Shown here one piece after another: positions 2,779 to 61,132 of a stretch of 64,000 nucleotides of DNA. The position numbers and the translations under genes were made by a program. The notes beneath the pieces are model-generated. The model saw only the letters and a list, made by a program, of their open reading frames with translations, made no database searches and was not told the origin of the DNA. How positions within the stretch are numbered: position 1 is the stretch's first letter; each line of letters starts with the position of its first letter. The stretch is from the NCBI GenBank assembly GCA_964569045.1, contig CAZMSR010000002.1, positions 43,272-107,271 of the forward strand, read 5' to 3'. The stretch is from an uncultured Gammaproteobacteria bacterium. GTDB lineage: Bacteria > Patescibacteriota > Patescibacteriia > Patescibacteriales > BS150m-G62.

Positions 2779-4500
2779 ATGGGCATTATTACTCAAATTA
2801 AAAAATCTCTAGTTTCTGATTCAAATAATTGTTTGCATAAAAATATTATAAAGGTAAAAAATATAGTTTACCCACCAAATATTAATATGGGAGACCTAAG
2901 CTTACCATGTTTTGAATTAGCAAATATCCTACACATAAGACCGCACGAAGCAGCTTTGGAATTAAAAAAATTACTATCTAAGAAAAAAAATAAATATCTA
3001 AGTTCAATTCAAGTTACCGGCCCATATATAAATTTTATTATTAACAAAAAAATTCTTGCGAAAAACTTATTAAAGGAAATAAAAGAAAAACAAAATAAAT
3101 ACGGAAAACTTAAAGTAAGTGAAAAAAAGAAGATAATGATTGAATACTCAAATGCAAATACTCATAAGGAGTACCACATTGGTCATTTGCGCAATATTTG
3201 CATCGGGGATTCAATTAACAAAATATTAGAAACTAATGGGCATAATATTTTTCCTGTTTCATATATTAATGATTTTGGCATACATGTAGCTAAAACGCTA
3301 TGGTGCTTAAAAGAATACTATAAAGACAAAATTCCTCAAAAAAATAAAGGGGAATTCTTGGGTAAAATTTATGCTGATTCAACTAATAAAACAAAAGAAA
3401 ATCCTTTAGCTCAAGATTTAATTAGTTTTTTAATGAAAAGAATAGAATCGCGAGAAGGAGAAGATTACAAGCTTTGGCAAAAAACCAGAAACTGGAGCAT
3501 AAAACAATTTAACGAAATATATAAAGAACTAAATATTGAATTTAAAAACATATACTACGAAAGCGAACTTATCCAAAAAGGATTAAAAATAATAAAAGAA
3601 CTAAAAGAGAAAAAAATCTTAATAGAAAGCAACGGAGCTATTATTGCTGATTTAAATAAATATAACTTGGGTATACTAGTAATAATGCGCTCAGACGGAA
3701 CAGCTTTATACCCGGTTGCTGATATTTCACTTGCTATTCAAAAAATTACTAAGCACAAACTTGATAAATCAATTTATGTTGTTGATGTCCGTCAGAGTTT
3801 GTATTTTAAACAATTATTTAAACTTCTGGAATTAATGGGCTATAAACAAGATTTAGTGCATTTGAGTTATGAATTTGTAAAACTACCCGATGGAATGATG
3901 TCATCAAGAACAGGCAATATAATAACCTATAGTGACTTAAGGGAGAAATTAAAAACCAAGGCCAAAGAAGAAATACTTAAGCGACATAATAATTGGAGCT
4001 TAAGAAAAATAGAAAAAACCGCTACCACTCTGGCATTAGCTATTATGAAATTTGAAATGTTAAAAGTTGATACTAACCAGATTATAAATTTTAACTTTGA
4101 AAATGCTTTAAAATTTGAAGGATACACAGCAGGCTATCTGGAATATACTTATGTAAGAATTAATAGTATTTTAAAAATATTTTATAAAGAAAACATAGAC
4201 ACCATATTTAGTGAAATTAATCTTTCCATTTTAAATAATAAAAAAGAACACGAATTAATAATTAAAATGGCAAAATATCCGGAAATCATAAAAAAAGCCG
4301 GTAATAATTACAACCCAAGCGAAGTAGCTAAATATCTATTTGAATTGGCTCAAATTACTAACGATTATTATCATGCTACCCCAATACTAAAATCAGATGA
4401 GGAGTTGCGAAGCGCACGTATACTATTAATTGAATCTGTTAATCAGATTATTAAAAATGGCCTTGGATTGCTTGGAATTGAAGTTTTGAATGAAATGTAA
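2779..4500 (+). CDS. argS: Arginyl-tRNA synthetase
   Basis: 573 aa. Class I HIGH motif (HIGHLRN), MSSRTG in place of KMSKS, ArgRS-like N- and C-terminal domains. Confidence 0.93.
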   Translation: MGIITQIKKSLVSDSNNCLHKNIIKVKNIVYPPNINMGDLSLPCFELANILHIRPHEAALELKKLLSKKKNKYLSSIQVTGPYINFIINKKILAKNLLKEIKEKQNKYGKLKVSEKKKIMIEYSNANTHKEYHIGHLRNICIGDSINKILETNGHNIFPVSYINDFGIHVAKTLWCLKEYYKDKIPQKNKGEFLGKIYADSTNKTKENPLAQDLISFLMKRIESREGEDYKLWQKTRNWSIKQFNEIYKELNIEFKNIYYESELIQKGLKIIKELKEKKILIESNGAIIADLNKYNLGILVIMRSDGTALYPVADISLAIQKITKHKLDKSIYVVDVRQSLYFKQLFKLLELMGYKQDLVHLSYEFVKLPDGMMSSRTGNIITYSDLREKLKTKAKEEILKRHNNWSLRKIEKTATTLALAIMKFEMLKVDTNQIINFNFENALKFEGYTAGYLEYTYVRINSILKIFYKENIDTIFSEINLSILNNKKEHELIIKMAKYPEIIKKAGNNYNPSEVAKYLFELAQITNDYYHATPILKSDEELRSARILLIESVNQIIKNGLGLLGIEVLNEM

Positions 4501-18148: not shown

Positions 18149-18985
18149 TCAATTACTGCGGACCAAGAACACCGAGGCCGACCCATAGCGCGAGTAGAAG
18201 TAGTCGACCCGGTTAGCGCCAAAGCCCAGGCGACCGTCGTCGAAGTCGAAGAGAGGCGCGAACGAGAAATCGCCACCGACGTCAGGTGCGTACTTATCCC
18301 CTGGGCAGTCGATGAACAAGTTCTCATGGGCCACGAGACGCTCGGGATGAGTTGCGAGCATGGAAACGATAACAAATGCTCCTAGACCGTATTCTTCGAC
18401 GGGAAACTCATCGCACACCTTGCGCACGCTCTTTCCGCGATGGAGGAAGCCGAATTGCGCCCAGATAACCCAGTAATCACCCGTCTGGGTTTTCCCGAGT
18501 TCATCGTAGAGCTCACGGGTCCTCTGACTCTCCCGCAAATACTTTGGTCCGAGGTTGTCTCCCCGATAGTTGTGGAAGTTGCGCTGGCCCGCGATAATGG
18601 CGAATATGGCCTTGAGAGCCGTGCCGTACTCGTCGGCCATGCGTTTCCACTTCGGGATGATGAAAAGAGCCTCTGCTCCCTTGGGGCGTTCTTTCGCTAA
18701 CTCCTCGGCCAATTCAAGCACGCCGTCGGTGGAGAGCCTGGGAAGCGTCTCACTCCAAAAGGCGAGCTGGTCGGCAGGGGATTTGGGCTCGTAACCCTTG
18801 GGGTAGCCGTAGTTGGACTCGGTTACCTCGTTGGCGTAACGACCGCGTGGTTTCTGCTCCTCCTCTTTTTCGTGTTTCAAAAAACTGGTCAAACGCTCCC
18901 TTGTGATGTGCCCCTCCTTGACTTGGCGCCAAAACTCTTGCATTTGACCAGGGGTTACATCACTTCCGTGCAGTGTGTCAATCAT
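18149..18985 (-). CDS. Hypothetical protein encoded on a ~58% G+C island (no family recognised)
   Basis: 278-aa ORF with a strong SD (taggaggatgttaccATG), its own promoter and its own terminator. The other ORFs overlapping it are stop-poor artefacts of high GC. Confidence 0.7.
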   Translation of the reverse strand: MIDTLHGSDVTPGQMQEFWRQVKEGHITRERLTSFLKHEKEEEQKPRGRYANEVTESNYGYPKGYEPKSPADQLAFWSETLPRLSTDGVLELAEELAKERPKGAEALFIIPKWKRMADEYGTALKAIFAIIAGQRNFHNYRGDNLGPKYLRESQRTRELYDELGKTQTGDYWVIWAQFGFLHRGKSVRKVCDEFPVEEYGLGAFVIVSMLATHPERLVAHENLFIDCPGDKYAPDVGGDFSFAPLFDFDDGRLGFGANRVDYFYSRYGSASVFLVRSN

Positions 18986-49281: not shown

Positions 49282-49839
49282 ATGCTTGCAATAAATCAAA
49301 TTAAAGTTGGCAAAATTATTAAAATTAGTAATGAGCCATACATTGTAACAAAAACAGATCACCATAAAATGGGAAGAGGCGGAGCCGTTTTAAAAACAAA
49401 ATTAAAAAACTTAATAAACGGATCTGTGCTTGAGAGAACTTTCCAAGGCAACGACAAGGCGGAACCGGCTGAAACTGAAAAAAAATCAGCTAATTTTCTT
49501 TACAAAGATGGAGATAATGCTCATTTTATGGATAACACTAATTATGAACAATTTTCATTACCAATTAGCACAATCGGAGAAAATCATAAATTTTTAAAAG
49601 AAGGTATGAAAGTTTTAGTGTTACATTATGATAATAATCCTGTAGCGGTTGAATTACCGATTAAAATTGAACTAAAGGTAACAAGCGCTCCTCCGGGAGT
49701 AAAAGGAAATACTGCCGGAAACACAAATAAAACAATAGAACTTGAAACAGGCGCAGAAATCGGAGCACCTTTATTTATAAATAAAGGTGACACTATTCGC
49801 ATAAACACTGAAACCGGAGAGTATGTTGAAAGGGTTTAA
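49282..49839 (+). CDS. efp: Elongation factor P
   Basis: 185 aa. ...HHKMGRGGAVLKTKLKNL..G... KOW/OB architecture. Confidence 0.94.
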   Translation: MLAINQIKVGKIIKISNEPYIVTKTDHHKMGRGGAVLKTKLKNLINGSVLERTFQGNDKAEPAETEKKSANFLYKDGDNAHFMDNTNYEQFSLPISTIGENHKFLKEGMKVLVLHYDNNPVAVELPIKIELKVTSAPPGVKGNTAGNTNKTIELETGAEIGAPLFINKGDTIRINTETGEYVERV

Positions 49840-50909
49840 CTTAAATTCTCTTTAAACCAATCCACCCAAGGGTTAGGGATTGGATTTTCTTCATTTAACA
49901 TGGCTAAGTAATATGTTGTGTATGAGGCAAATTGGAGCATTTCCATGGATTGCTCTATTTTTGTTTTACCTTGAAGTTTGTGGCTTAGCACTTTTATTCC
50001 ATTTTTTTCAATAACTTTTTTAGTTAAATCTGCTCTTTCTTGAATACGCGAAGTATACAAATCTGAATCAAAAAATAAAAAAACTAAATTATTTTTATTA
50101 TTATCCGGATGCGATAATCCTTCCATTGCAAAATGATTTAAATCCGGCAATACTAAATAGCCGGCAAAATTTTTAGCTGTTTCGCAAAATTGATTGCGCA
50201 TTATAAATGCATTGCCTTCTAAAAATTCAGCGCTCGCTATAACTATGTTTTTACCCTTTAATTTTACAGCCGACTTTTTTGCTAAATTAACTTCACTCCC
50301 TGCCTCTGGGCGTAGCTTTCTATCTTGCACTTCCATTATATTAATAACTCTTTCAATGGCTGCGACATCTAAATTAAGTGCACCGGATTTAGCTAAAATA
50401 ACAGCTAAACCAAATACTGCATAACCGACCGCTAATCTTGGAGAATTGGCCGGGTTAAACTTTGGATCAAAAACATAACCGGGAATATTATTTTCTATCA
50501 TTATCTTTTCTAAAGCTTTACCGCTTTTTGAAGTAATAGCAAGAAGCTTAGCACCTCTTTTTTTAGCTTCAGGATAAACACTTAAAACTTCCTCTGTTGT
50601 GCCTGAATAACTAGAAAGGACAAAAAGAGTTGTTTTATCAACATAACCGGGAACCTCATATCCGGCTAAAATATCAAGCGGAACTTTTAAATCTTGGGAA
50701 AACAACACCTTAGCAATGCGCGCACCTAAGTTTGACCCGCCCATTCCGGCCACTACAATATTTTTTATCTCACTATATTCTTTAGGAATTTTTATTAAAA
50801 GAGAATCATTTATTACTTGCCTTATTTGATCCGGCAAAAGTTCAAGCGATTTATAGCCGGCGCTTTTGTCTATTTTATTTATATAATTTATATTGTCTAA
50901 AATATTCAT
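49836..50909 (-). CDS. pgi: SIS-domain bifunctional phosphoglucose/phosphomannose isomerase
   Basis: Two SIS-like halves (VVAGMGGSNLGA..., SYSGTTEE). The ATG at 50909 (MNILDNINY) is preferred, because the track start at 50963 would overlap the upstream gene. Confidence 0.62.
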   Translation of the reverse strand: MNILDNINYINKIDKSAGYKSLELLPDQIRQVINDSLLIKIPKEYSEIKNIVVAGMGGSNLGARIAKVLFSQDLKVPLDILAGYEVPGYVDKTTLFVLSSYSGTTEEVLSVYPEAKKRGAKLLAITSKSGKALEKIMIENNIPGYVFDPKFNPANSPRLAVGYAVFGLAVILAKSGALNLDVAAIERVINIMEVQDRKLRPEAGSEVNLAKKSAVKLKGKNIVIASAEFLEGNAFIMRNQFCETAKNFAGYLVLPDLNHFAMEGLSHPDNNKNNLVFLFFDSDLYTSRIQERADLTKKVIEKNGIKVLSHKLQGKTKIEQSMEMLQFASYTTYYLAMLNEENPIPNPWVDWFKENLS

Positions 50910-50937
50910 AATTACGTAAAATAATTTTAAAATATAA

Positions 50938-51294
50938 TCACAAAGGAGGCTTATCTGACCCAAGAAACTTAAATCTTTCTACAAAAGCATTATATTCTGA
51001 TAAATCATCCTGAAACGTTTTTTGTGGAGATGGGATATCTCTTCCCATAATTCCTTCTGAAATATCGTGTATTAAAAGAGCTGACAACACCAAGGCCTGA
51101 TCTATTCCGGCAGAATAATCATGAGCAAGATCAAAATACATCATACCAAGCAAAGAAATCCCAAGAGTATGCTCTGCATTATTCTGAATCCTAACACCAC
51201 TGTAATGAAAAAGCTTCCACCTTTTAACTTGCGACATCTCTACTTGAGATTGCCTCCAAATAGTCATAACTTCCAACCATTCATTCAGATTCAT
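50938..51294 (-). CDS. Small HD-domain protein (possible truncated YfbR-like phosphohydrolase)
   Basis: NAEHTL ... LLIHDISEG gives an H...HD pattern. At 118 aa it is short for the family. Confidence 0.45.
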   Translation of the reverse strand: MNLNEWLEVMTIWRQSQVEMSQVKRWKLFHYSGVRIQNNAEHTLGISLLGMMYFDLAHDYSAGIDQALVLSALLIHDISEGIMGRDIPSPQKTFQDDLSEYNAFVERFKFLGSDKPPL

Positions 51295-51479
51295 AGCAAG
51301 CCTCCTCTACATTTGGAAATCAAGCTTCCAGTAAAAACTTCCTAATAGTAACCTATACTCAGAAACCAGGTTAAAATGAACAAATTCCAAAACTATTAAT
51401 GCGCTCTATATATCATAAAAAATAAATAAAACAAACGACTACTTAATAGCCACCTAGATAAAGTATAAATTATAATATT

Positions 51480-52328
51480 CTATTTAGTCAATCTATTCCA
51501 ATCAGATGCAAATTTTTCAAGACCTTTTTTTGTTAAATCATGCTCTATGTTAAAATTTTGCCAATTTTTATTTAAATCTAAATCTTTATACAAAATACAA
51601 GCCCTGCCTTGATGACTATGACTATATTTTTCTTTTGACATTGACTTATCTGTTTGTGCCCAATCCTTTAATACTGTAATTGGAATTGTTACTATGTCCG
51701 GCTTTAATTTAAATGCATCTATTAAATGTTCTGAATTTCTAATGCTTGCTACCAAAACTTTAACATGCCCATCGCCAACCTTATACATTTTCATAATATT
51801 TTCAACTAAGTCAAGCCCTTCTAAGCCAATATCATCTAAACGACCATCAAAAGGGGAGATAAATACTTGCCCCGGCTTTGCTCCTTTGGTAGCACCGTAT
51901 ACTGCTGCCGCCTGCTCTTGCGAAAAACAAAGAGTCATATTTAAACGCATGCCGTTTTGTGATAAAACTTGCGCTGCTTCCAGACCATTTTTTGTAATCG
52001 GAATTTTTATATAAGCATTATCGCACCAATTGTACATAGCATTTGCTTCTTTTATTATTTGATCTTTGGTTGTATTTGCATCAACGTAAACTTCTATTGA
52101 AATTGCTCCTCCGGGAATAAGCGCAGCAATTTCAGTTATTACTTTTTTATAAAAAATATTTAACTCATCTTTACTAAATTTTTCGCCTTCTAGAATACGC
52201 TTTTTTGCGCTTGGGTTCTTTGCTATTAAACTTGGATTAGTTGTTTGCCCGGCTAAACCTCCAAATAAAGTTAAAGCTTCACGAGTATCTTCCGGACTAC
52301 CGGAGTCTAAAAATATTTTGGTTTGCAT
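51480..52328 (-). CDS. tal: Transaldolase-family protein
   Basis: FLDSG...GQTTNPSL, active-site region AYIKIPIT, SPFDGRLDD. Confidence 0.85.
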   Translation of the reverse strand: MQTKIFLDSGSPEDTREALTLFGGLAGQTTNPSLIAKNPSAKKRILEGEKFSKDELNIFYKKVITEIAALIPGGAISIEVYVDANTTKDQIIKEANAMYNWCDNAYIKIPITKNGLEAAQVLSQNGMRLNMTLCFSQEQAAAVYGATKGAKPGQVFISPFDGRLDDIGLEGLDLVENIMKMYKVGDGHVKVLVASIRNSEHLIDAFKLKPDIVTIPITVLKDWAQTDKSMSKEKYSHSHQGRACILYKDLDLNKNWQNFNIEHDLTKKGLEKFASDWNRLTK

Positions 52329-52329
52329 A

Positions 52330-53055
52330 TTATTTATTTTTTATTATTTTCTTAATTAACATAACTGCTTGGTCTGCAGTATCAACTAAATAGTAAAGCT
52401 TTAAATCTTTTTTTGAAATTGCTTTGTTTTCTTTGTAAAGCGTATTTTCTATCCAATCAAGAAGGGGAGACCAGTATTCTTTTCCGACTAAGATTATTGG
52501 AATTTGTTTTAACTTTTTAGTCTGAATTAAAGTAATTAACTCAAAAAATTCATCAAGCGTTCCAAAACCGCCGGGAAAATACACATAAACTTGCGAAACA
52601 AAAGAAAGCATAACTTTGCGTACAAAAAAGTAATCAAAGGTCATTGCTTCAGCAACATACCGATTACGGACTTCTGTTGGCCCCCCATTACCAAGCTTAA
52701 TATTTAAACCGGCAGATTTCCCGCCAGCATCTGCCGCTCCTTTGTTGGCAGCTTCCATGATTCCCGGTCCTCCGCCGGTTACAACTGCAAAACCCATATT
52801 AGCAAGCTTAGCACCTAAACTTTCAGCTTCTCTATATGGCTCATCTTTAAGTGTGCACCTAGCTGAACCAAATATGCTCACTGCTGCTGAATATTTATTT
52901 ATAAACTCAAATCCGGAAACAAATTCTGCCATTATTTTAAATATTCTCCAAGATTCAATTTCACCATCATGCAGCTTAATAACTTCGAGTGGCTTGTCTC
53001 GAGTTAAACGAAATGTTTTATGAATTGGCTCAATTTTTACTGATGTTTTTTTCAT
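52330..53055 (-). CDS. LOG-family (TIGR00730) nucleotide phosphoribohydrolase-like protein
   Basis: GGGPGIMEAANKGA and PGGFGTLDEFFE signature motifs. Confidence 0.82.
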   Translation of the reverse strand: MKKTSVKIEPIHKTFRLTRDKPLEVIKLHDGEIESWRIFKIMAEFVSGFEFINKYSAAVSIFGSARCTLKDEPYREAESLGAKLANMGFAVVTGGGPGIMEAANKGAADAGGKSAGLNIKLGNGGPTEVRNRYVAEAMTFDYFFVRKVMLSFVSQVYVYFPGGFGTLDEFFELITLIQTKKLKQIPIILVGKEYWSPLLDWIENTLYKENKAISKKDLKLYYLVDTADQAVMLIKKIIKNK

Positions 53056-53061
53056 TTTAAA

Positions 53062-55101
53062 TTATTTTTTATAATATTTATTTATTTTTGCTAAAATATT
53101 TTTTTCGCTAAAACCAAATTTTTCCATATTAATTGCGCCGGGTGCTGAAGCACCATATTTTTCTATACTAATAATTAACCCAAACTCCCCTACGTACTTT
53201 TCCCACCCCTGGGCTACGCCAGCTTCTATTGAAACACGTTTTTTAATTTTAAGTGGCAGCACGTTTTCTTTGTATTTTTGACTTTGAAGTTCAAATAGCT
53301 CAAAAGAAGGCATACTTACCACCCTTGCTTTAATGCTTTTTTGATTTAATTTTAATGCTACTTTTAAGGCCAGGCTTACTTCTGAGCCTGTAGCTATTAA
53401 AATCAAATCAGGGTTATTAACTTCAGGATTTAATACATAAGCGCCACGCTTTAAATTATTCGCATTTGCAAAAGACTCTTGATTGATTAATGGCAATCTT
53501 TGCCTGGTTAATATTAATGCTGTGGGGCCCTTTTTATTATTAACCGCAGCCTCCCATGCCACCACCACTTCATTAGCATCTGCCGGTCTAATTAGAGTTA
53601 AATTTGGCATAGCACGTAAGCTTGCTAAATGCTCTATTGGTTCGTGAGTTGGCCCATCTTCTCCAAGTGCTATAGAGTCATGAGTTAAAACGTATATAAC
53701 TCGATGTTTTGAGAGTGCAGCAAGGCGCATAGCCGGTCGCATATAGTCTGAAAAAACTAAAAAAGTTCCGCCAAACGGTTTAATGCCGGGAGTTAAAGCT
53801 AAGCCGTTTAAGCAAGCAGCCATGGCATGCTCTCTTATGCCAAAATGAATATTACGAGCAGACTTATCACTAAAAAGACAAGCAGTTTCACCTTTTTCAT
53901 TAATCCAAGTTTTAGTAGAAGGTGCTAAGTCGGCTGAACCTCCTAAAAAAAGCGGATAATTTTGTGCAATTGCATTTATTACTGCTCCAGAGACTTCCCT
54001 AGTAGAATAATCCTTGCATTTAACTTGCATTGCACAATTATAGTTATTCTTAAAGCTTTTTGAAGTTATTGTTTTATTCCAATTACTTGGCAATTTTCCT
54101 TTTATTGCACTTTCTAACTCTAGAGCTAATTGCGGACATTTCTTTTTATAATCGCTAAATTTTTTATTCCAGGCATTTTCTAATTCCTTGCCCTGACTCA
54201 CTTTAAATCTAAATTTATTTAAAGCTTTACTTGGAATATAGAATTCTTTATGAGGCCAATTTAAATTATTGCGTAATAATTTTACTTCGTCTTGCCCAAG
54301 AGGCTCACCATGAGCCTTGGCTGTCCCCTGTTTATTTGGTGCCCCATAGCCAATTTTATTTTTTACAATAATTAAACTTGGCTTTTTATACTTTTTAGCA
54401 TGAGCTATTGCGTTTTTAATGTCTTGTAAATTATTGCCATTATTTATTAATAAAACATGCCAACCCAAGGCTTTATATTTTTTTTCTACATCTTCGCAAT
54501 AGGTTAAACTAGTATTACCTTCAATTGAAATATTATTTGAATCGTATAAATAAACAATATTATCTAGCTTAAGACTACCGGCTAATGAAGCGGCTTCGTT
54601 AGTTAAGCCTTCCATCAAATCTCCATCACTAACAATACCGTATATATTATAATCTATTATGCTTTGACCGCGCTTATTAAAATAGCCTTTTAAAATTTTC
54701 TCGCCAATAGCAAACCCAACACCGGTAGCAAAACCCTGACCAAGTGGTCCGGTTGTGCATTCTACTCCCGGAGTTAAACCATGTTCCGGATGACCGGGAG
54801 TTATACTCCCCCACTGTCTAAAACTTTTAATATCATTCAAGCTTACCTTATAGCCCGTTAAATGAAGCAAACTATATAGCAAAGCCGAACCATGCCCGGC
54901 TGACAAAATAAACCTATCGCGATTAATCCAAGATGGATTAGAGGGATTAAAACGCAAAAATTGACTCCATAAAACATACGCCATTGGTGCAGCTCCTAAA
55001 GGTAACCCGGGGTGTCCTGATTTAGCCTTTTCAATCATATCTACACTTAACATCCTTAGTGTATTTACGCACAAATTGTCTAAATTATTATTTTTATTCA
55101 T
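53062..55101 (-). CDS. tkt: Transketolase
   Basis: SGHPG..LGAAPMAY, GDGDLMEG-like SDGDLMEG, THDSIALGEDGPTHEPIE. Confidence 0.96.
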   Translation of the reverse strand: MNKNNNLDNLCVNTLRMLSVDMIEKAKSGHPGLPLGAAPMAYVLWSQFLRFNPSNPSWINRDRFILSAGHGSALLYSLLHLTGYKVSLNDIKSFRQWGSITPGHPEHGLTPGVECTTGPLGQGFATGVGFAIGEKILKGYFNKRGQSIIDYNIYGIVSDGDLMEGLTNEAASLAGSLKLDNIVYLYDSNNISIEGNTSLTYCEDVEKKYKALGWHVLLINNGNNLQDIKNAIAHAKKYKKPSLIIVKNKIGYGAPNKQGTAKAHGEPLGQDEVKLLRNNLNWPHKEFYIPSKALNKFRFKVSQGKELENAWNKKFSDYKKKCPQLALELESAIKGKLPSNWNKTITSKSFKNNYNCAMQVKCKDYSTREVSGAVINAIAQNYPLFLGGSADLAPSTKTWINEKGETACLFSDKSARNIHFGIREHAMAACLNGLALTPGIKPFGGTFLVFSDYMRPAMRLAALSKHRVIYVLTHDSIALGEDGPTHEPIEHLASLRAMPNLTLIRPADANEVVVAWEAAVNNKKGPTALILTRQRLPLINQESFANANNLKRGAYVLNPEVNNPDLILIATGSEVSLALKVALKLNQKSIKARVVSMPSFELFELQSQKYKENVLPLKIKKRVSIEAGVAQGWEKYVGEFGLIISIEKYGASAPGAINMEKFGFSEKNILAKINKYYKK

Positions 55102-55177
55102 TTTTTCTTTTTATCAAAACCATATACAAATAATAACATAAAATTGACTCGCACGCACATCAAGCTATAATACAAAG

Positions 55178-56242
55178 ATGAAAGATACGAATAGTAAAAA
55201 TAATAGTCAACATACTTGCGAAAAAATTATTGTAGATGGGCAAAAAATTAAAAAAGATGAATTAAAAGATATTTTTTCTAAAAAAAGAAAAAAATTTGAA
55301 GAACTTGGAGTTAGTGTAAAGGAATACTTAATTCGCCATTTAGATAATAAAGATATTAGCTTTTCTGATATTAATTTTAGGGTTAAAGACTTTAATTCTT
55401 TTTGGGGAAAAATTGTTAGAAAGCAGTACTATAAAGAGCCGTTTCAAAAAATCGATGACATATGCGGATTGCGGATAATTTACTATTATCCATCTGATTG
55501 CGCACAAATTATTAAATTAGTTAAAGATGAATTACATATTGTTGAGACAATAAATAAAAATCAAGAATTAGAATTTAATCAATTTGGTTATCGATCTAAT
55601 CATTTTGTAATAATGCCTCCAAGCAGAGTTAACTTAGACCCGCTTTTGCGAGGACTTGAGCAATTTAGAGCTGAAATTCAAATTAGAACGGTTTTAATGC
55701 ATGCCTGGGCAGAAATTGAACATAAATTAGCCTATAAAAGCAAAGACCAAATTCCGGATCGACTAAGAAGAAAATTTTCTCAACTATCGGCTTTATTTGA
55801 AATAGCCGACGAACGGTTTGAAGAAATAAGAGCAGAGAGAATTGAATTTATTGATAAACTAAAAGAACATACTTTATCTACCGGATGTTTTAATAAGAAT
55901 CTTGACTTGAATTTAGATACTTTTCAAGCTTTTTTAGATTATTATTTACCTAATCAAGAAAAAAACATTAAAAAATCAAGAGCCTTTTTAAATGAAATAT
56001 TACCTATGGGTCTAACTATAAAAAAACTAGTTGAAAGCTATGAAAACGCAGGATATTTAGTTAATGATCTAAAAAAAGAACTTAATATTAAAGAAAAATG
56101 GTCTCAAGTAGAAACCATTAGAGCTGTACTAGATTTAACTGATGATGTTTATTGGAACTCTAGAAAATTTAATATTTTAACCCTAGGTTATGTGCCATTT
56201 TGTGAAAAATACAGAAAAATCATAAAGTCAAAAATTTACTAA
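55178..56242 (+). CDS. RelA/SpoT-domain nucleotide pyrophosphokinase (stand-alone small alarmone synthetase type) with ~140-aa C-terminal extension
   Basis: Synthetase motifs RVKDFNSFWGKI, DICGLRII, FGYRSNHFVI, EIQIRTVLMHAWAEIEHKLAYK. No HD hydrolase domain and no TGS/ACT domains. Confidence 0.82.
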   Translation: MKDTNSKNNSQHTCEKIIVDGQKIKKDELKDIFSKKRKKFEELGVSVKEYLIRHLDNKDISFSDINFRVKDFNSFWGKIVRKQYYKEPFQKIDDICGLRIIYYYPSDCAQIIKLVKDELHIVETINKNQELEFNQFGYRSNHFVIMPPSRVNLDPLLRGLEQFRAEIQIRTVLMHAWAEIEHKLAYKSKDQIPDRLRRKFSQLSALFEIADERFEEIRAERIEFIDKLKEHTLSTGCFNKNLDLNLDTFQAFLDYYLPNQEKNIKKSRAFLNEILPMGLTIKKLVESYENAGYLVNDLKKELNIKEKWSQVETIRAVLDLTDDVYWNSRKFNILTLGYVPFCEKYRKIIKSKIY

Positions 56243-56355
56243 ACTAAATGTCAACCGACTCTTTATACATTTTCACTGAATACAATTTTTTTAAATATTT
56301 GACATATACTATTAATCATGATAACATAAATAAAATTTAAAAAAGGAGAGTACAA

Positions 56356-56631
56356 ATGAATGCTGAGTTTATCAAAAGTCAGGAAGCAAAACTATTAACT
56401 CGCCAAAAAAAGTATAAAAAATTGATAAATTCAAATAAACCTCCGATGCATGCTCATTTAAAAATAACTACATCTTTAAAATATATAAAAATCGCTTTAA
56501 ACCACATAAGGAAAGGAATTTATGGAACATGCATAGATTGTGAAGGTCAAATTCTACAAAAAAGACTCGAATCTGTTCCCGGGGCAATAAGATGTATAAC
56601 TTGCCAAACTCAAGAAGAACAGAAAGGCTAA
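56356..56631 (+). CDS. DksA/TraR-family C4 zinc-finger protein
   Basis: CIDCEGQI...(17 aa)...CITCQ four-Cys finger at the C-terminus. SD aaggag. Candidate promoter TTGACA-17-TAACAT at 56299-56327. Confidence 0.75.
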   Translation: MNAEFIKSQEAKLLTRQKKYKKLINSNKPPMHAHLKITTSLKYIKIALNHIRKGIYGTCIDCEGQILQKRLESVPGAIRCITCQTQEEQKG

Positions 56632-56634
56632 AAA

Positions 56635-56931
56635 ATGCCGAATCGCGCAAATCTTGTAAAAATTTTTACTAATGCACTTGAAAAAGCAAGTATAGCCGCA
56701 TCTCTAGCAAATACAAAAAATACAGAAAAAATACTATTTCAATATTGGAAAAATGCTATTCACTGCATGCTTATTAAAAATAGAGTCTGCCCTTGTCAAA
56801 AAAATAACCCGGATGAGTGCTTTTTAACTTTTTCACAAAATGAACAAATTGGACTACTAAATGGCAAAGATATTAGTTTTCAAAATTTTGTAAATTATTT
56901 TACTCAAGCAAAAAAAATATTTATAAATTAA
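56635..56931 (+). CDS. Hypothetical protein (98 aa)
   Basis: ORF starting 4 nt after the DksA-like stop. Contains CPCQ...DEC. No family recognised. Confidence 0.35.
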   Translation: MPNRANLVKIFTNALEKASIAASLANTKNTEKILFQYWKNAIHCMLIKNRVCPCQKNNPDECFLTFSQNEQIGLLNGKDISFQNFVNYFTQAKKIFIN

Positions 56932-56940
56932 AAAAATAAT

Positions 56941-56966
56941 GTGCGTAAAAAATGCACTTTTTTTTA
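56941..56966 (+). terminator. Candidate Rho-independent terminator
   Basis: gtgcg-taaaaaa-tgcac short stem (one G-U pair) followed by a T8 run. Confidence 0.4.
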
Positions 56967-57016
56967 TTTTATAAAGTTGTGCTCAAATTAGCTTCACCTG
57001 CAAGTACCACTATTTT

Positions 57017-57697
57017 CTATTCATTAAAAACAAAACCGCGAAATACATGCATTGATTTTTTACTTGTACCGTTACTTGTATCATGCACCCTATCATGCTC
57101 TTTATCGGTTAATGCTTCTTCCGGAAAAAATTTAACAGGCAATTGCATAACAACAAAACGAATATCTTCCGGATGCACTTCTCCGCTAGCACTTCTTATA
57201 GTATCGCGACGTATATTCCCCACCTCTTTAAACTTAGGATTTAAATCATTCACCTTTAAATCTTGCCCTTTACGAAAACCAACACAAACAGCTATACCAT
57301 CATTACTTCTTTCAAATCCTTCTAAAAAAGCTGTTCTAATTGCCCGATCATAAGCATAAGGATCCCACTGTGTACAATTTGGGTATTCTTGTTTTGTATT
57401 GTTATGAAATTTAATTTCTAGATCTTGTTGTTCAAGTATCGCATTACTTAATCTTTCTAAATTTTCTCTTCTAATTATTAGATCATCATTTCTGAATTTT
57501 TCATAAATACCGTTAACATCCTCATAATGTTCACCACCTGCTTTTTCAAAAGCCTTTTTAATACCAAGATAAGCGCTATAAACTGCCTGCTCCTTTTCCT
57601 TGTCAGACAAATTATGCGGCAAACTATCCAAGGCTAAAGCTATATTGCTTTTTTTCTCCTTAATCATTTCTTTTTTAAAAAAATTTGCTTCATTCAT
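57017..57697 (-). CDS. Hypothetical protein (226 aa)
   Basis: Longest ORF at this locus, with normal amino-acid composition, unlike the overlapping + strand ORF 56952..57353. No family recognised. Confidence 0.45.
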   Translation of the reverse strand: MNEANFFKKEMIKEKKSNIALALDSLPHNLSDKEKEQAVYSAYLGIKKAFEKAGGEHYEDVNGIYEKFRNDDLIIRRENLERLSNAILEQQDLEIKFHNNTKQEYPNCTQWDPYAYDRAIRTAFLEGFERSNDGIAVCVGFRKGQDLKVNDLNPKFKEVGNIRRDTIRSASGEVHPEDIRFVVMQLPVKFFPEEALTDKEHDRVHDTSNGTSKKSMHVFRGFVFNE

Positions 57698-57705
57698 ATA
57701 AATTT

Positions 57706-58599
57706 TTAATTTTTTACTTCATGTTTGCCAAACCGGTTTCTAAGAGCTGAAAGCACCCGACCGGTATAACTAGGATTATCCTGAGACTGCTCTCTGAATT
57801 TTAATGCGCTTTTAATTACAGGAACAGGAATATTTAATTCCCTTGCTGCATTAACAGTCCAAAGACCTTCGCCGGAATGCGAGACTTTACCTGATATACC
57901 AACTAAATCTTCTCCGTATTTGGCGTATGCCTTATTGAGCCAAGAAATCAAGCGAGATTCTATTACACTTTTATGCTCATAAACCTTAGCAACCTCACTC
58001 AAATCAAGATTAAATTTTGACTTTTTCATTAACGCAAAACCTTCAGCTATTGCCTGCATCATGCCATATTCTATACCATTGTGTATCATTTTAACAAAAT
58101 GACCGGCACCGGAATCTCCCATATAGGCATAACCATTTTTTATACTTAAATCACAGAACAATTGTTTATATTTAGCAAACACTTCTTTTTTGCCGCCAAT
58201 CATTATTGAAGCTCCGTTTCGAGCTCCGCTAGGACCACCGCTTACTCCTACATCTAAAAAATTAATGCCTTTTTGCGCTAATTCTTGTGCACGCCTTATT
58301 GACTCTTTATAGGGCGAATTGCCTCCATCAATTACAATATCCCCGGATTCAAGTTCAGGTAAAATTCTTGCAATTACACCATCAACAACCTTCCAAGGAA
58401 CCATAACCCAAATTAATCGAGGAGAATCTAATTTTTTTATAACATCGGCATTATCTTGAGCAATAATTGCGCCTAAATTTTCTACTTTTTTTAAAATGCT
58501 TTTATTACGAGTAGAAGCAACCACGACATAGCCTTTTTCAAGCAAACGCTCGACCATGTTTTGCCCCATCTTACCTAAGCCGATATAGCCAATTTTCAT
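57706..58599 (-). CDS. gnd: 6-phosphogluconate dehydrogenase, short (YqeC/Gnd-like) form
   Basis: MKIGYIGLGKMGQNM Rossmann start, GGNS, GAGHFVKMIHNGIEYG. Confidence 0.85.
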   Translation of the reverse strand: MKIGYIGLGKMGQNMVERLLEKGYVVVASTRNKSILKKVENLGAIIAQDNADVIKKLDSPRLIWVMVPWKVVDGVIARILPELESGDIVIDGGNSPYKESIRRAQELAQKGINFLDVGVSGGPSGARNGASIMIGGKKEVFAKYKQLFCDLSIKNGYAYMGDSGAGHFVKMIHNGIEYGMMQAIAEGFALMKKSKFNLDLSEVAKVYEHKSVIESRLISWLNKAYAKYGEDLVGISGKVSHSGEGLWTVNAARELNIPVPVIKSALKFREQSQDNPSYTGRVLSALRNRFGKHEVKN

Positions 58600-58627
58600 A
58601 CTAACATTTTTAAATAATAATTTTCTA

Positions 58628-60043
58628 CTAAATTTTTAAAGCACCCTTTTTATATTCGATCAATTTAACATCCTTCCAAGCCTTTACAACCGAATCAATA
58701 AACTTCCAAGCATTCATAACCTCTCCGGATGCTACGAATAAAGTCTGATCGCCGATTATACAATCATATAATACTTTTTCATAAGCATCTAATTCTTTTT
58801 TAATGTTTTCTTTGTAATTAAAAGATAAATCACGAGGAGCAATTTTAAAATCCATCCCCGGCTCTTTAGCCCAAAAACGAACAGTTATTAATTCTTCTGG
58901 TTGAATATTAAATATTACTTGATTTTTGTGATTATGCGTGAGCCCTGCTTTTTTTGAATTTGGTTCACAAAAACATGGCATAGCAGCTTTAAATTCAACA
59001 CTTATATCAACTTTGTTTTTACTTAAAGCTTTGCCGCTTTCTAGAATAATTGGCACACCTTTCCATCTTTGATTATTAACAAATGTTTTTAAACTAAAGT
59101 ATGTCTCGGTTTGTGTTTTAACAGAAACTCCTTTTTCTTTTTTATAGCCTTTGTACTGAGCTCTGATAAAAACATTTTTTATTTCTTTTTTAAGTGGTAA
59201 AATTAGACACGAAAATATTTTTTCGCGATTAGCTCTTATTGTTTTTGCGCTAATTTCGCCGGGATTTTCCATTGTTATTAGGGCGAGCATTTGAAGCAAA
59301 TGATTTTGCCCAACATCTCGCAGAGCCCCTATTCCGTCGTAAAAATTAGCACGCGCTTTTAAATCACTTTTTTCAAGTAATCTAATTTTTATACTTTCAA
59401 TATATTTATTATTCCAAATCGGCTCAAATATGCTATTAGAAAATCTAAAACTTAAAATATTCTGCAAAGTCTCCTTGGCTAGGTAATGATCTATTCTAAA
59501 AATCTGCTCTTCACGAAAAAGCTTTGTTAAAAGCTTGTCTAATTTTTGAGCTGTTGTATTATTTTTACCAAAAGGCTTTTCTACAAGAACACGAGTCCAG
59601 CCCAAAGAACTAGAACAAGGCTTTGTTAAGCCTGATTTTGACAAATTTTTTAAAATAACTTCGTAATAATTTGGAGGAACTGCTAAATAAAAAAGTTTAT
59701 TAGAACACTGCCCGATTTGCAAATCTATTCCTTTTAAAATTGCAGACAATTCTTTGTAGTATTTTTGATCTGTAAAGTCACCTTGCTTATAAAGAATATT
59801 TTCTAAAAATCCATCTATCACCCTTTGGTCATGTTTATGCTTTTTTTGTTTTATTGAACTTCTGGCAAATTTTTTATATTCAATATCATTCCATTTACGT
59901 CTAGAAAATCCAACAACTCGTAATATGTCCGGAAGTAAGTTTTTAGCGCTTAAATCCATTAAGGCGGGAATCAGTTTAGTCTGAGACAAATCACCGGTTG
60001 CACCAAAAACCACCACAATTGTTGGAGTTTTAATTTTATTCAT
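58628..60043 (-). CDS. zwf: Glucose-6-phosphate 1-dehydrogenase
   Basis: FGATGDL, RIDHYLAKE, EKP motifs. Confidence 0.92.
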   Translation of the reverse strand: MNKIKTPTIVVVFGATGDLSQTKLIPALMDLSAKNLLPDILRVVGFSRRKWNDIEYKKFARSSIKQKKHKHDQRVIDGFLENILYKQGDFTDQKYYKELSAILKGIDLQIGQCSNKLFYLAVPPNYYEVILKNLSKSGLTKPCSSSLGWTRVLVEKPFGKNNTTAQKLDKLLTKLFREEQIFRIDHYLAKETLQNILSFRFSNSIFEPIWNNKYIESIKIRLLEKSDLKARANFYDGIGALRDVGQNHLLQMLALITMENPGEISAKTIRANREKIFSCLILPLKKEIKNVFIRAQYKGYKKEKGVSVKTQTETYFSLKTFVNNQRWKGVPIILESGKALSKNKVDISVEFKAAMPCFCEPNSKKAGLTHNHKNQVIFNIQPEELITVRFWAKEPGMDFKIAPRDLSFNYKENIKKELDAYEKVLYDCIIGDQTLFVASGEVMNAWKFIDSVVKAWKDVKLIEYKKGALKI

Positions 60044-60051
60044 TATATTAA

Positions 60052-60687
60052 TTATAATTTTAGTCTTTCGAGTAAACGATTATAATTTTCTTCTACATTA
60101 TCTGCATCAAACAAAGTACTGCCAATAACAAAAATATTAACACCGGCTTTATTAGCATCTTGAATTGAATCATGATTAACACCACCATCAATAGCTATTT
60201 TGACTTCACTGTTAAGTGTTTTAATCTCCTTTACTTTATTTAAAACATTAATTAAAAACTTTTGTCCGGAAAACCCAGGTTCAACTGATAACAACAAAAC
60301 TAAATCAATTTTATTAATAAAAGATTGAATTAAACTAACCGGAGTTTTTGGATTAATCGCAATACCAAATTCAAAATCATACTGACTTGCCTTATGCAAA
60401 ACATATTCAATATCATCTACAGCTTCTATGTGAACTATAACTCTTTTGGCACCAATGTTTTTGCAATCATTAAATAAATCGGTTGGATTTTTTGTCATTA
60501 AATGAATTTCCAAATTTATTTCCTTATTTAATCCTTTTAGCTCTTTAACTTCTATGGTAAGACTTGGCACAAACTTATTATCACAAACATCTATTTGCAC
60601 CCAATCTGTTAACTCTTTTACTAAATTTATTTTCTTTTTTACTTCATTTAAATTTTTACTTAGAATTGCCGGTATTATTTTTTTCAT
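60052..60687 (-). CDS. rpe: Ribulose-phosphate 3-epimerase
   Basis: IIPAILS..., H.M, VEPGFSGQKF, IDGG. Confidence 0.9.
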   Translation of the reverse strand: MKKIIPAILSKNLNEVKKKINLVKELTDWVQIDVCDNKFVPSLTIEVKELKGLNKEINLEIHLMTKNPTDLFNDCKNIGAKRVIVHIEAVDDIEYVLHKASQYDFEFGIAINPKTPVSLIQSFINKIDLVLLLSVEPGFSGQKFLINVLNKVKEIKTLNSEVKIAIDGGVNHDSIQDANKAGVNIFVIGSTLFDADNVEENYNRLLERLKL

Positions 60688-61132
60688 ATTTACTTATTTT
60701 AATAACCCTCCGTTTATGCTTTTTTAAATTACTAAATGATGTATTTAACCAGACTCTAATCATTCTTTTAGCTAATGCTGAATTAATATTTTTTGCTCCA
60801 AGGCAAAGAATATTAGTATTGTTATGCGCCTTAGCTAAACGAGACAAAGTTATACTCGCTGCGTTAAATGCTCTTGCTCCTTTTACCTTATTAGCCGCTA
60901 TACACATTCCAATTCCGGAACCACATATTAAAATTCCAATGGAATTTGCTTTTGCTACCTTGCTTGCTGCAAGTATAGCATAATCCGCATAATCATCGAT
61001 CGGGTCATGTTTAGTATTTCCAACATCAACACAATTGTATTTAAGCTTTGTTAAAAAAATAATTAATTCATTTTTAAGCTTAAACCCACAATGATCACTA
61101 GCTAAATAAATAGTCTTTTTACTTTTTAACAT
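60656..61132 (-). CDS. rpiB: Ribose-5-phosphate isomerase B
   Basis: IYLASDHCGFKLK..., GILICGSGIGMCIAANK, RLAKAHNNTNILCLGA. Confidence 0.9.
   Translation of the reverse strand: MLKSKKTIYLASDHCGFKLKNELIIFLTKLKYNCVDVGNTKHDPIDDYADYAILAASKVAKANSIGILICGSGIGMCIAANKVKGARAFNAASITLSRLAKAHNNTNILCLGAKNINSALAKRMIRVWLNTSFSNLKKHKRRVIKISKYEKNNTGNSK

Follow-up and report, generated by a model that had tools for sequence, protein, structure and literature searches.

The synthetase gene and its product

The stretch of DNA analysed here (the window, 64 kb of contig CAZMSR010000002.1, with a G+C content of about 31%) carries on its plus strand a gene for a two-domain pyrophosphokinase of the RelA/SpoT family, whose closest homologues are labelled Patescibacteria and Candidatus Falkowbacteria. 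The first-pass annotation of the locus had listed three open reading frames (ORFs), namely this synthetase gene, a zinc-finger gene and an ORF of 98 aa (ORF98), and had described the first product as a stand-alone synthetase of the small alarmone synthetase (SAS) type with an uncharacterised C-terminal domain (CTD). ORF calls and Pfam searches bear out the three ORFs, the motifs that had been quoted and the lack of hydrolase, TGS and ACT domains, and the description of the synthetase holds as well. The gene and its parts are as follows.

55178..56242, plus strand: two-domain RelA/SpoT-family pyrophosphokinase gene, 354 aa (SAS core, linker helix, CTD)
55144..55171, plus strand: sigma-70-like promoter of the synthetase gene, TTGACT-16-TATAAT, recognised only by its match to 11 of 12 consensus positions
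55355..55753, plus strand: synthetase (SYNTH) core, residues about 60-192, delimited by Pfam, RelP/RelQ alignments, Foldseek and the family invariants
55757..55882, plus strand: long linker helix, residues 194-235 (42 residues), from the AlphaFold2 model and the RelQ alignment, which extends to residue 221
55886..56239, plus strand: family-specific six-helix CTD, residues 237-354

The 354-aa ORF includes the strings RVKDFNSF, DICGLRII, GYRSNHFVI and EIQIRTVLMHAWAEIEHKLAYK. Its sole significant Pfam match is RelA_SpoT (PF04607; residues 68-190, E=1.2e-24, 87.2 bits against a cut-off of 27), and Pfam detected no HD, TGS or ACT domain. The model for long RelA/SpoT homologues (RSH), TIGR00691, reaches 37 bits against a cut-off of 499, and the NCBIfam equivalog NF053588 (GTPPhKinYjbM, i.e. 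YjbM) 81 bits, which is below its cut-off of 320. On its sequence, the protein is assigned to the SAS class of the RSH superfamily.

The closest solved relatives by sequence are RelP and RelQ (E about 1e-17), which align from about residue 37 to residue 221 and retain the RVK, DDICGLRII, GYRS.H and EIQIRT motifs. An alignment of 61 homologues contains 33 invariant columns. Invariant throughout is the catalytic set R68, K70, K78, D94, G97, R99, Y138, R139, H142, E166, Q168 and R170; the Arg and Lys residues for the ATP phosphates, the Mg-binding Asp, the catalytic Glu and Gln and the G-loop Tyr are all present and aligned with those of RelP and RelQ. When the family profile was compared with the PDB, RelQ was matched at 8e-29, RelP at 5e-28 and CapRel at 1.7e-4; for long RSH the values were 0.0093 for one 346-aa chain named 'GTP pyrophosphokinase' (9s6k) and at least 0.09 for the others. 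The AlphaFold2 model of the protein, built with the 61-homologue alignment, has a pLDDT of 90.9 and a pTM of 0.78, and its N-terminal 200 residues fit RelQ and RelP chains in Foldseek (E about 1e-10, TM 0.73-0.82). From about residue 60 to residue 221 the protein has the fold of the RelQ/RelP-like small alarmone synthetases, and none of the catalytic residues is missing. The net charge of SYNTH is about 0, and a conserved basic N-terminal patch was not seen in the family consensus. Two residues before the G-loop Tyr the family has an invariant Phe (F136), preceded by Asn or Asp at position -4 (N/D-x-F-G-Y).

The -10 element of the promoter-like sequence stops 6 nt 5' of the ATG and there is no Shine-Dalgarno sequence, so that the mRNA of the synthetase is predicted to be leaderless or nearly so. 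The -35 element, TTGACTC, is kept upstream of the orthologues in two relatives (L001 and L002).

A helical C-terminal extension of about 140 aa had been noted in the first reading. It is helical, and its length is corrected here to about 130 aa beyond the RelQ-like fold, made up of the distal part of the linker helix and a compact six-helix domain (residues about 240-354). The linker helix prolongs the helix matched by the C-terminal helix of RelQ and RelP and leads, as a rigid connection, into the CTD; no other segment is as conserved in the Patescibacteria clade (91% identity). Folded alone (residues 232-354), the CTD gives six helices and no sheet at a pLDDT of 92.6. Foldseek detected no significant structural neighbour of it in the PDB (best E=1.0) or in BFVD (best E=0.46), and a profile-sequence search of the PDB gave no match. 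The domain has an invariant motif of the LNLDxxQAFLD type in which N245 and D247 are invariant, and F238, Q250, A251, L253, D254, E299, Q310, L318 and Y325 are nearly so. Its net charge is +4 in the window protein and +3 to +4 in the clade, the family median being -2. A YxxY sequence occurs anywhere in the CTD in 7 of 61 sequences, and not at the family-conserved positions of the window protein.

A profile of the CTD alone matched 416 proteins among 1.84 billion (1.84e9) representatives. The matches examined have the same architecture or are N-terminally truncated fragments, with four exceptions: two proteins in which an unrelated N-terminal domain of about 290 aa is followed by the CTD and RelA_SpoT is lacking, one synthetase with two tandem CTDs and one with a further C-terminal extension of 170 aa. 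These alternative architectures were found in the proteins labelled P0152, P0179, P0198 and P0192. The CTD is almost exclusive to this synthetase family.

Spread of the family and conservation of the locus

In a scan with one genome per species, the family was found in 416 of 185,579 genomes, i.e. in about 0.2% of species. Its members come from Bacteroidota, Bacillota, Pseudomonadota, Zixibacteria, Acidobacteriota, Peribacteria and several archaeal groups. For a survey of the neighbourhood, ORFs were called at 75 loci and the neighbours at plus or minus 3 positions were clustered by BLASTP. No neighbour recurred in about 70 loci, except inside the close Patescibacteria clade and among strain duplicates of Paenibacillus. 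An all-against-all comparison with phmmer --max of 83 small same-strand flanking ORFs from 49 loci yielded one marginal pair only, and BLASTP of the cluster proteins of the window against all family neighbours showed no recurrence outside the close Patescibacteria clade. Since neither a neighbour nor a small flanking ORF recurs, the gene is solitary. The family is rare, horizontally scattered and of single-gene organisation.

In raw counts, a minority of the neighbours match PADLOC defence models (PDC-S32, IetS, a TIR effector, RT-protease, AbiJ and LmuA). One locus is an island with TIR_2, PDDEXK, an RNase and AAA_15/SMC genes, and an island of Paenibacillus polymyxa (L007/L008, 3136-9730) contains an integrase, a Ser/Thr kinase, Shedu (SduA_C) and a second RelA_SpoT gene. 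Ten adjacent genes of about 330 aa encode GcpE, MrcB_N-HNH, a metallo-beta-lactamase, a second RelA_SpoT protein, an integrase, AbiH, ASD, PhoD, an unknown protein and a TIR protein. The adjacent TIR gene is of the Pycsar type, and tandem RelA_SpoT genes occur with an integrase. In Photobacterium (L066, 2865-6210) two different RelA_SpoT genes lie close by, adjoining an integrase.

The family is also carried by a phage. The 8.1-kb Vibrio inovirus PQ189320 bears a full-length member as accessory cargo (L093, 6571-7581), positioned between the Zot-like morphogenesis gene and a regulator, which is where the accessory genes of inoviruses usually sit. The CTD of this member matches the family profile with an hhalign probability of 99.1%. 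In addition, the phage protein family phrog_9640 matches residues 27-253 of the window protein with E=1e-47.

In the lineage of the window the gene occupies a fixed site. It is found at the same place in four related genomes (L001, L002/L003 and L010), with proteins of 79%, 81% and 66% identity, and in the window as in the relatives it lies between transketolase, from which it diverges, and the remainder of a pentose-phosphate cluster on the minus strand. Orthologues of 76-81% identity are among those at this locus. This position is specific to the clade, for the Peribacteria and all other family loci lack these neighbours. The synthetase is 79-81% identical where TKT reaches 72%, G6PD 73%, 6PGD 72%, RPE 66% and TAL 65%; LOG (82%) is the only flanking gene as conserved as the synthetase. 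In SYNTH and the CTD alike, the proportion of nonsynonymous differences (pN) amounts to 0.08-0.10, and for the linker helix it drops to 0.04-0.05; that of synonymous differences (pS) is about 0.8 and saturated; because of this saturation pN and pS are given instead of dN/dS. Only the first 59 residues are fast-evolving. The synthetase core, the linker helix and the CTD are under strong purifying selection.

The cluster itself (49836-61132, minus strand) comprises PGI, an HD fragment, transaldolase, LOG/TIGR00730, transketolase, a 6PGD-like gene, G6PD, RPE and RpiB, and is interrupted by the plus-strand synthetase locus and an orphan ORF of 226 aa. The presence of a LOG-family nucleotide phosphoribohydrolase suggests that nucleotide ribose feeds into the pathway. 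The oxidative branch varies between the relatives: L001 has 6PGD and G6PD, L002 and L010 have neither. The HD-domain ORF (50938-51294, minus strand, 118 aa) matches positions 8-94 of a 182-position YfbR-like profile and also HD_3; it seems truncated, overlaps with the PGI ORF in its long version that starts at TTG, and is not of the SpoT/Mesh1 type (HD_4). No SpoT-type hydrolase partner was detected in the pentose-phosphate cluster.

Downstream of the synthetase gene the following features were found, none of whose ORFs is part of the module.

56299..56327, plus strand: separate promoter-like site, TTGACA-17-TAACAT with TG (TGnTAACAT), for the DksA/TraR-ORF98 bicistron
56356..56631, plus strand: DksA/TraR-type C4 zinc-finger ORF, 91 aa
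56635..56931, plus strand: orphan ORF98, 98 aa, beginning 3 nt past the zinc-finger gene (TAA aaa ATG)
56941..56957, plus strand: terminator-like hairpin with a T-run, closing the DksA-ORF98 unit
57017..57697, minus strand: orphan ORF of 226 aa at the end of the minus-strand 6PGD operon

The gap between the zinc-finger gene and ORF98, for which 4 nt had been given, is thus one nucleotide shorter. The zinc-finger gene is preceded by a Shine-Dalgarno sequence (AAGGAG). Its product matches PF01258 (zf-dksA_traR) in residues 54-89 (E=1.7e-11, 44 bits against a cut-off of 24.9) and has a zinc finger of the form CxxC-x17-CxxC (CIDC...CITC), but all seven NCBIfam models for DksA, TraR and YteA stay far under their cut-offs (DksA_like 39 vs 105, TraR 36 vs 59.7). 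Only the zinc-finger part (residues 40-89) aligns to DksA/TraR chains. DksA and TraR bear a functional acidic tip with Asp that reaches the active site of RNA polymerase. Residues 1-60 of the zinc-finger protein contain no Asp, so that an acidic coiled-coil tip of this kind is not evident.

ORF98 belongs to no family in the Pfam, NCBIfam, PADLOC and PHROGs libraries, and its sole database match is a copy of 99% identity; for the zinc-finger protein only an identical protein was found, both by a word-index search of limited sensitivity for short proteins. The 226-aa ORF, 8 nt downstream of 6PGD and present in all contigs of this population, has no match in Pfam, NCBIfam, PADLOC, PHROGs or the PDB. 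All three ORFs are missing from L001, L002, L003 and L010, in which the stop codon of the synthetase runs directly into 6PGD or RPE (in L001 the 6PGD gene follows 15 nt later). From this absence, the zinc-finger gene, ORF98 and the convergent 226-aa ORF form a species-specific segment of about 1.45 kb. In 15 contigs, which come from several samples, a nearly identical arrangement is present; the population SNPs (L095-L100) come from almost identical sequences and are uninformative on selection of ORF98 and the zinc-finger gene. Because of their own promoter, Shine-Dalgarno sequence and terminator, their absence in the relatives and the lack of detectable homologues, we take the zinc-finger gene and ORF98, on the sequence evidence, to be unrelated neighbours and not functional partners of the synthetase.

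Elsewhere in the window, the only G+C spike (0.455 compared to about 0.31) coincides with an ORF of 278 aa (18149-18985, minus strand) with no Rfam or tRNA match there, which could be a recent acquisition of foreign DNA. Neither Rfam nor tRNA scans of the whole window gave a match.

Proposed role and alternative readings

Small alarmone synthetases under C-terminal control are increasingly recognised as effectors of immunity. CapRel detects capsid proteins, and a nucleoid protein activates Pag1B/GRel. We propose, with a probability of roughly 0.55, that the protein encoded in the window is a self-contained, C-terminally gated alarmone synthetase. The CTD would keep the synthetase off or on via the linker helix. 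A signal acting on the CTD would then lead to the transfer of pyrophosphate from ATP to the 3'-OH of GTP, GDP or GMP, and growth would be slowed or stopped by the (pp)pGpp made and by the drain on nucleoside triphosphates. Gating by the CTD is inferred because there are two precedents for it, Pag1B/GRel and RelQ. In RelQ, the acceptor-binding G-loop becomes ordered through a salt bridge between its Arg and the C-terminal helix alpha5 (Steinchen et al. 2018, PMC5794853). The equivalent of this Arg, R139, is invariant in the family. The acceptor is most likely a guanosine nucleotide, to judge from the closeness to RelQ and RelP and from the F-x-Y context of the G-loop, which is common to a Pag1B-like protein.

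The sporadic spread, the occurrence in archaea, the carriage by a phage, the islands and the lack of a partner suggest that the family as a whole could act as a mobile single-gene module of growth arrest, of the stress or abortive-infection kind. On the other hand, the fixed locus, the conservation above that of most neighbouring enzymes and the non-variable CTD suggest that in this reduced genome the gene now belongs to the normal physiology of the cell, for which it may have been co-opted as a source of alarmone. For this genome we give a defence or stress module about an even chance, and a domesticated housekeeping enzyme a distinctly smaller one. It is conceivable, though speculative, that the CTD is a new switch sensing a ligand or protein for a RelQ-like synthetase, and that in this lineage a once-mobile defence-type module was domesticated as the main (p)ppGpp source and wired into the pentose-phosphate/nucleotide-salvage cluster beside LOG.

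Several observations weigh against a gated growth-arrest module. The CTD is 79% identical within the clade, conserved like the catalytic core and not hypervariable. In this it is unlike the fast-evolving sensor of CapRel, and a physiological regulator fits better than an arms-race sensor. The 96 immediate neighbours of family members are mostly ordinary genes (MetRS, RecA, GyrB, GcpE, CPSase). The orthologue in L010, a metagenome-assembled genome of Candidatus Falkowbacteria, is apparently frameshifted (3256-4304), with an ORF of 218 aa and one of 51 aa that contains the C-terminal end. RPE is also split in this contig, so that both a pseudogene and an assembly error are possible. The residues before the G-loop Tyr are unlike those of RelP (K-P-N-G-Y) and RelQ (K-E-S-G-Y), which makes a non-guanosine acceptor possible, and the product, regulation and toxicity of the family members are all inferred.

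Another reading takes the protein for a housekeeping alarmone synthetase of a reduced genome, the ordinary and perhaps the only source of (p)ppGpp, whose CTD senses a metabolite, which has no defence role and whose position with LOG among pentose-phosphate and nucleotide-salvage genes reflects a regulatory link. We consider this possible, though doubtful. It agrees with the position fixed in four related genomes, with a synthetase more conserved than most flanking core enzymes, with the strong purifying selection on both domains including a CTD that is not hypervariable, and with the invariant polar residues of the CTD, which suggest a ligand or interface site. Furthermore, the core is nearest to the non-toxic RelQ and RelP, many family members have only housekeeping neighbours, and no second SYNTH-like ORF was detected within the 64-kb window, for which the first-pass annotation had likewise noted the lack of a long RSH; this view of other RSH and hydrolase genes covers 64 kb of the genome. 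However, the pentose-phosphate position is limited to this clade, and a family confined to about 0.2% of species includes archaea as well as taxa that already have long RSH enzymes, as Flavobacterium, Paenibacillus and Pseudomonas presumably do. Carriage by an inovirus and loci in defence islands also count against this reading, and the cluster holds no detected SpoT-type hydrolase, its HD ORF being YfbR-like and truncated. An acceptor other than guanosine, such as the adenosine used by the (pp)pApp synthetases FaRel and Tas1, is unlikely in our view. The invariant F136 and the N/D at position -4 do differ from RelP and RelQ, and shifts of acceptor specificity are known from toxic SAS (toxSAS) enzymes (bioRxiv 10.1101/2021.04.30.441581). 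The Pag1B-like protein, however, shares the F at position -2, and only GTP, GDP and GMP serve as acceptors for the Pag1B homologues that have been characterised (bioRxiv 10.64898/2026.04.06.716658); overall similarity is highest to RelQ and RelP, which make (p)ppGpp.

The first-pass annotation had offered two readings, a housekeeping SAS with a DksA-like cofactor and a toxic SAS module of the toxin-antitoxin or CapRel type, and neither fits as stated. For a joint action of the synthetase, the zinc-finger protein and ORF98 on RNA polymerase one can cite the same-strand adjacency, a zf-dksA_traR domain above the Pfam cut-off, the lack of a detected terminator between the synthetase and zinc-finger genes, and the fact that in Escherichia coli DksA potentiates the action of ppGpp on RNA polymerase. 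This linkage is tempting, but it is largely refuted by the comparative data and was removed as unsupported: the zinc-finger gene and ORF98 are separately promoted, the former with its own Shine-Dalgarno sequence, the zinc-finger gene is absent from every syntenic relative (66-81% identity of the synthetase) and from about 70 family loci, no homologues were found beyond the population, and the protein aligns to DksA and TraR only in its zinc finger, lacks Asp in residues 1-60 and stays far under the cut-offs of the DksA/TraR/YteA models. We regard such a module as very improbable. Still less probable is a classical toxSAS toxin-antitoxin pair with the zinc-finger protein, ORF98 or both as antitoxin. 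Small, tightly coupled ORFs do lie downstream, and known loci are bicistronic or tricistronic (PMC7229694). Across about 70 loci, the sensitive search for small ORFs included, no adjacent gene is conserved anywhere in the family, orthologues of 79-81% identity are kept in genomes that lack these ORFs, a state that would be lethal had the ORFs encoded antitoxins, and the putative antitoxin has a separate promoter and lies downstream at a distance of 113 nt.

A mechanism like that of CapRel, in which the CTD, as an intramolecular antitoxin, blocks the ATP site and directly senses a phage protein and the released enzyme pyrophosphorylates the CCA ends of tRNA, also seems unlikely to us. The two proteins share a similar size, the layout of SYNTH and C-terminal regulatory domain, the single-gene organisation and the occurrence in defence islands and phages; Foldseek aligns them over the full length (E 6e-6), and there is a weak partial match to the PADLOC candidate PDC-S33. 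But the Foldseek match has an rmsd of about 21 Å and a TM of about 0.4, the profile match in sequence falls short of that to RelQ by 24 orders of magnitude, and the all-helical CTD has no three-stranded sheet and no match in the PDB. YXXY in 7 of 61 sequences, a SYNTH of about zero charge with no basic N-terminal patch and a CTD that is not hypervariable in the clade do not fit CapRel either.

If the CTD of the presumably gated synthetase responds to a signal, identifying that signal would reveal a further input into growth arrest by alarmones. A strongly conserved gene fixed in a core metabolic cluster raises the question how (p)ppGpp is made and used by bacteria that are ultra-small and depend on a host, and if domestication is true, an immune or toxin effector would have turned into a core growth regulator in an ultra-small genome.

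Relation to known alarmone synthetases

RelQ (YjbM/SAS1) and RelP (YwaC/SAS2) of Bacillota are the best match in sequence and structure over residues 25-221, approximately. As in these enzymes, the ATP-binding, Mg-binding and catalytic residues and the Tyr and Arg of the G-loop are conserved and hydrolase, TGS and ACT domains are lacking. RelQ and RelP form homotetramers around a central cleft, in RelQ with an allosteric site for pppGpp. They are single-domain proteins of about 210 aa, whereas the window protein adds about 130 aa (the extended helix and the six-helix domain); and they are a stable feature of one phylum, whereas this family is sporadic and mobile. With 81 bits against a cut-off of 320, and with 354 aa including an extra domain, the protein was rejected as a RelQ/RelP equivalog, and the clear RelP/RelQ orthology that the first-pass annotation had weighed against its toxic-module reading is absent. 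In a table of RSH subgroups from 2011, no SAS subgroup has the taxonomic spread of this family.

For the bicistronic and tricistronic toxSAS FaRel, FaRel2, PhRel and PhRel2, the defining feature is a conserved antitoxin gene next to the synthetase gene (PMC7229694). They have the RelA/SpoT fold in common with the window family, and some are borne by phages, but the window family has no conserved adjacent gene. Membership in the bicistronic toxSAS was rejected, as there is no recurrent neighbour and orthologues occur without the zinc-finger gene and ORF98. The comparison with fused, C-terminally regulated toxSAS proteins, which had also been drawn at the outset, is a reasonable functional analogy. 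Among these, CapRel (CapRel-SJ46, PDB 7ZTB) likewise combines an N-terminal synthetase fold and a C-terminal regulatory domain in one chain of about 350-370 aa, and it too is a single gene found on phages and in defence contexts. Its CTD is a pseudo-zinc-finger domain (pseudo-ZFD) made of a three-stranded antiparallel beta-sheet and a helix, with anchors and a conserved YXXY motif that plugs the ATP site (PMC9712102). The CTD of the window family, in contrast, is all-helical, has no conserved YXXY motif and matches neither 7ZTB nor 9ERV; and whereas CapRel modifies tRNA, no conserved basic patch is evident in the window family. Membership in CapRel, as suggested in the first reading, was thus rejected, the core also being nearer to RelQ and RelP (SYNTH profile E 1.7e-4 for CapRel vs 8e-29 for RelQ).

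The profiles of PDC-S33 (349 positions) and phrog_9640, about 350-365 positions long, match the N-terminal 230-250 residues, which comprise SYNTH and the linker. At the level of sequence profiles, this suggests that proteins with SYNTH, a linker and a variable CTD are more widely represented in defence and phage settings. PDC-S33 scores 57 bits on the window protein (profile positions 8-242) and 52-66 bits on other family members, reaching position 309 at most; phrog_9640 scores 164 bits. These matches are partial and modest and end at or before the start of the CTD. No publication on PDC-S33 was found.

The best functional precedent is Pag1B/GRel, the effector of type I PANGU, which consists of SYNTH, an alpha-helical linker and a CTD of about 100-130 aa and is inert until a partner binds the CTD, whereupon (pp)pGpp is made from ATP and GTP, GDP or GMP (bioRxiv 10.64898/2026.04.06.716658). 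According to the secondary structure of the AlphaFold2 model, this layout is common to the window protein. A RelA/SpoT protein linked to a nucleoid-associated protein (NAP) on a Clostridium botulinum plasmid, which we assumed to be Pag1B-like, shows 30% identity in SYNTH and the first part of the linker (E 4e-19); it likewise carries F at position -2 relative to the G-loop Tyr. The CTDs of this homologue and of the window family are, however, not homologous (hhalign probability 0.15%), and the type I PANGU CTD is an acidic DNA mimic (DMK), whereas that of the window protein has a net charge of +4. No gene for a YejK-like nucleoid-associated protein, which in type I PANGU is the operonic Pag1A, was found beside the window locus or the family members examined (about 70 loci, the ten adjacent genes of about 330 aa and the top 25 Pfam families of the 96 neighbours), and with no NAP gene and an unrelated CTD, membership in PANGU was rejected. 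As far as found in the literature, the window protein belongs to an existing family with a third, uncharacterised C-terminally regulated SAS architecture, next to those of CapRel and Pag1B/GRel.

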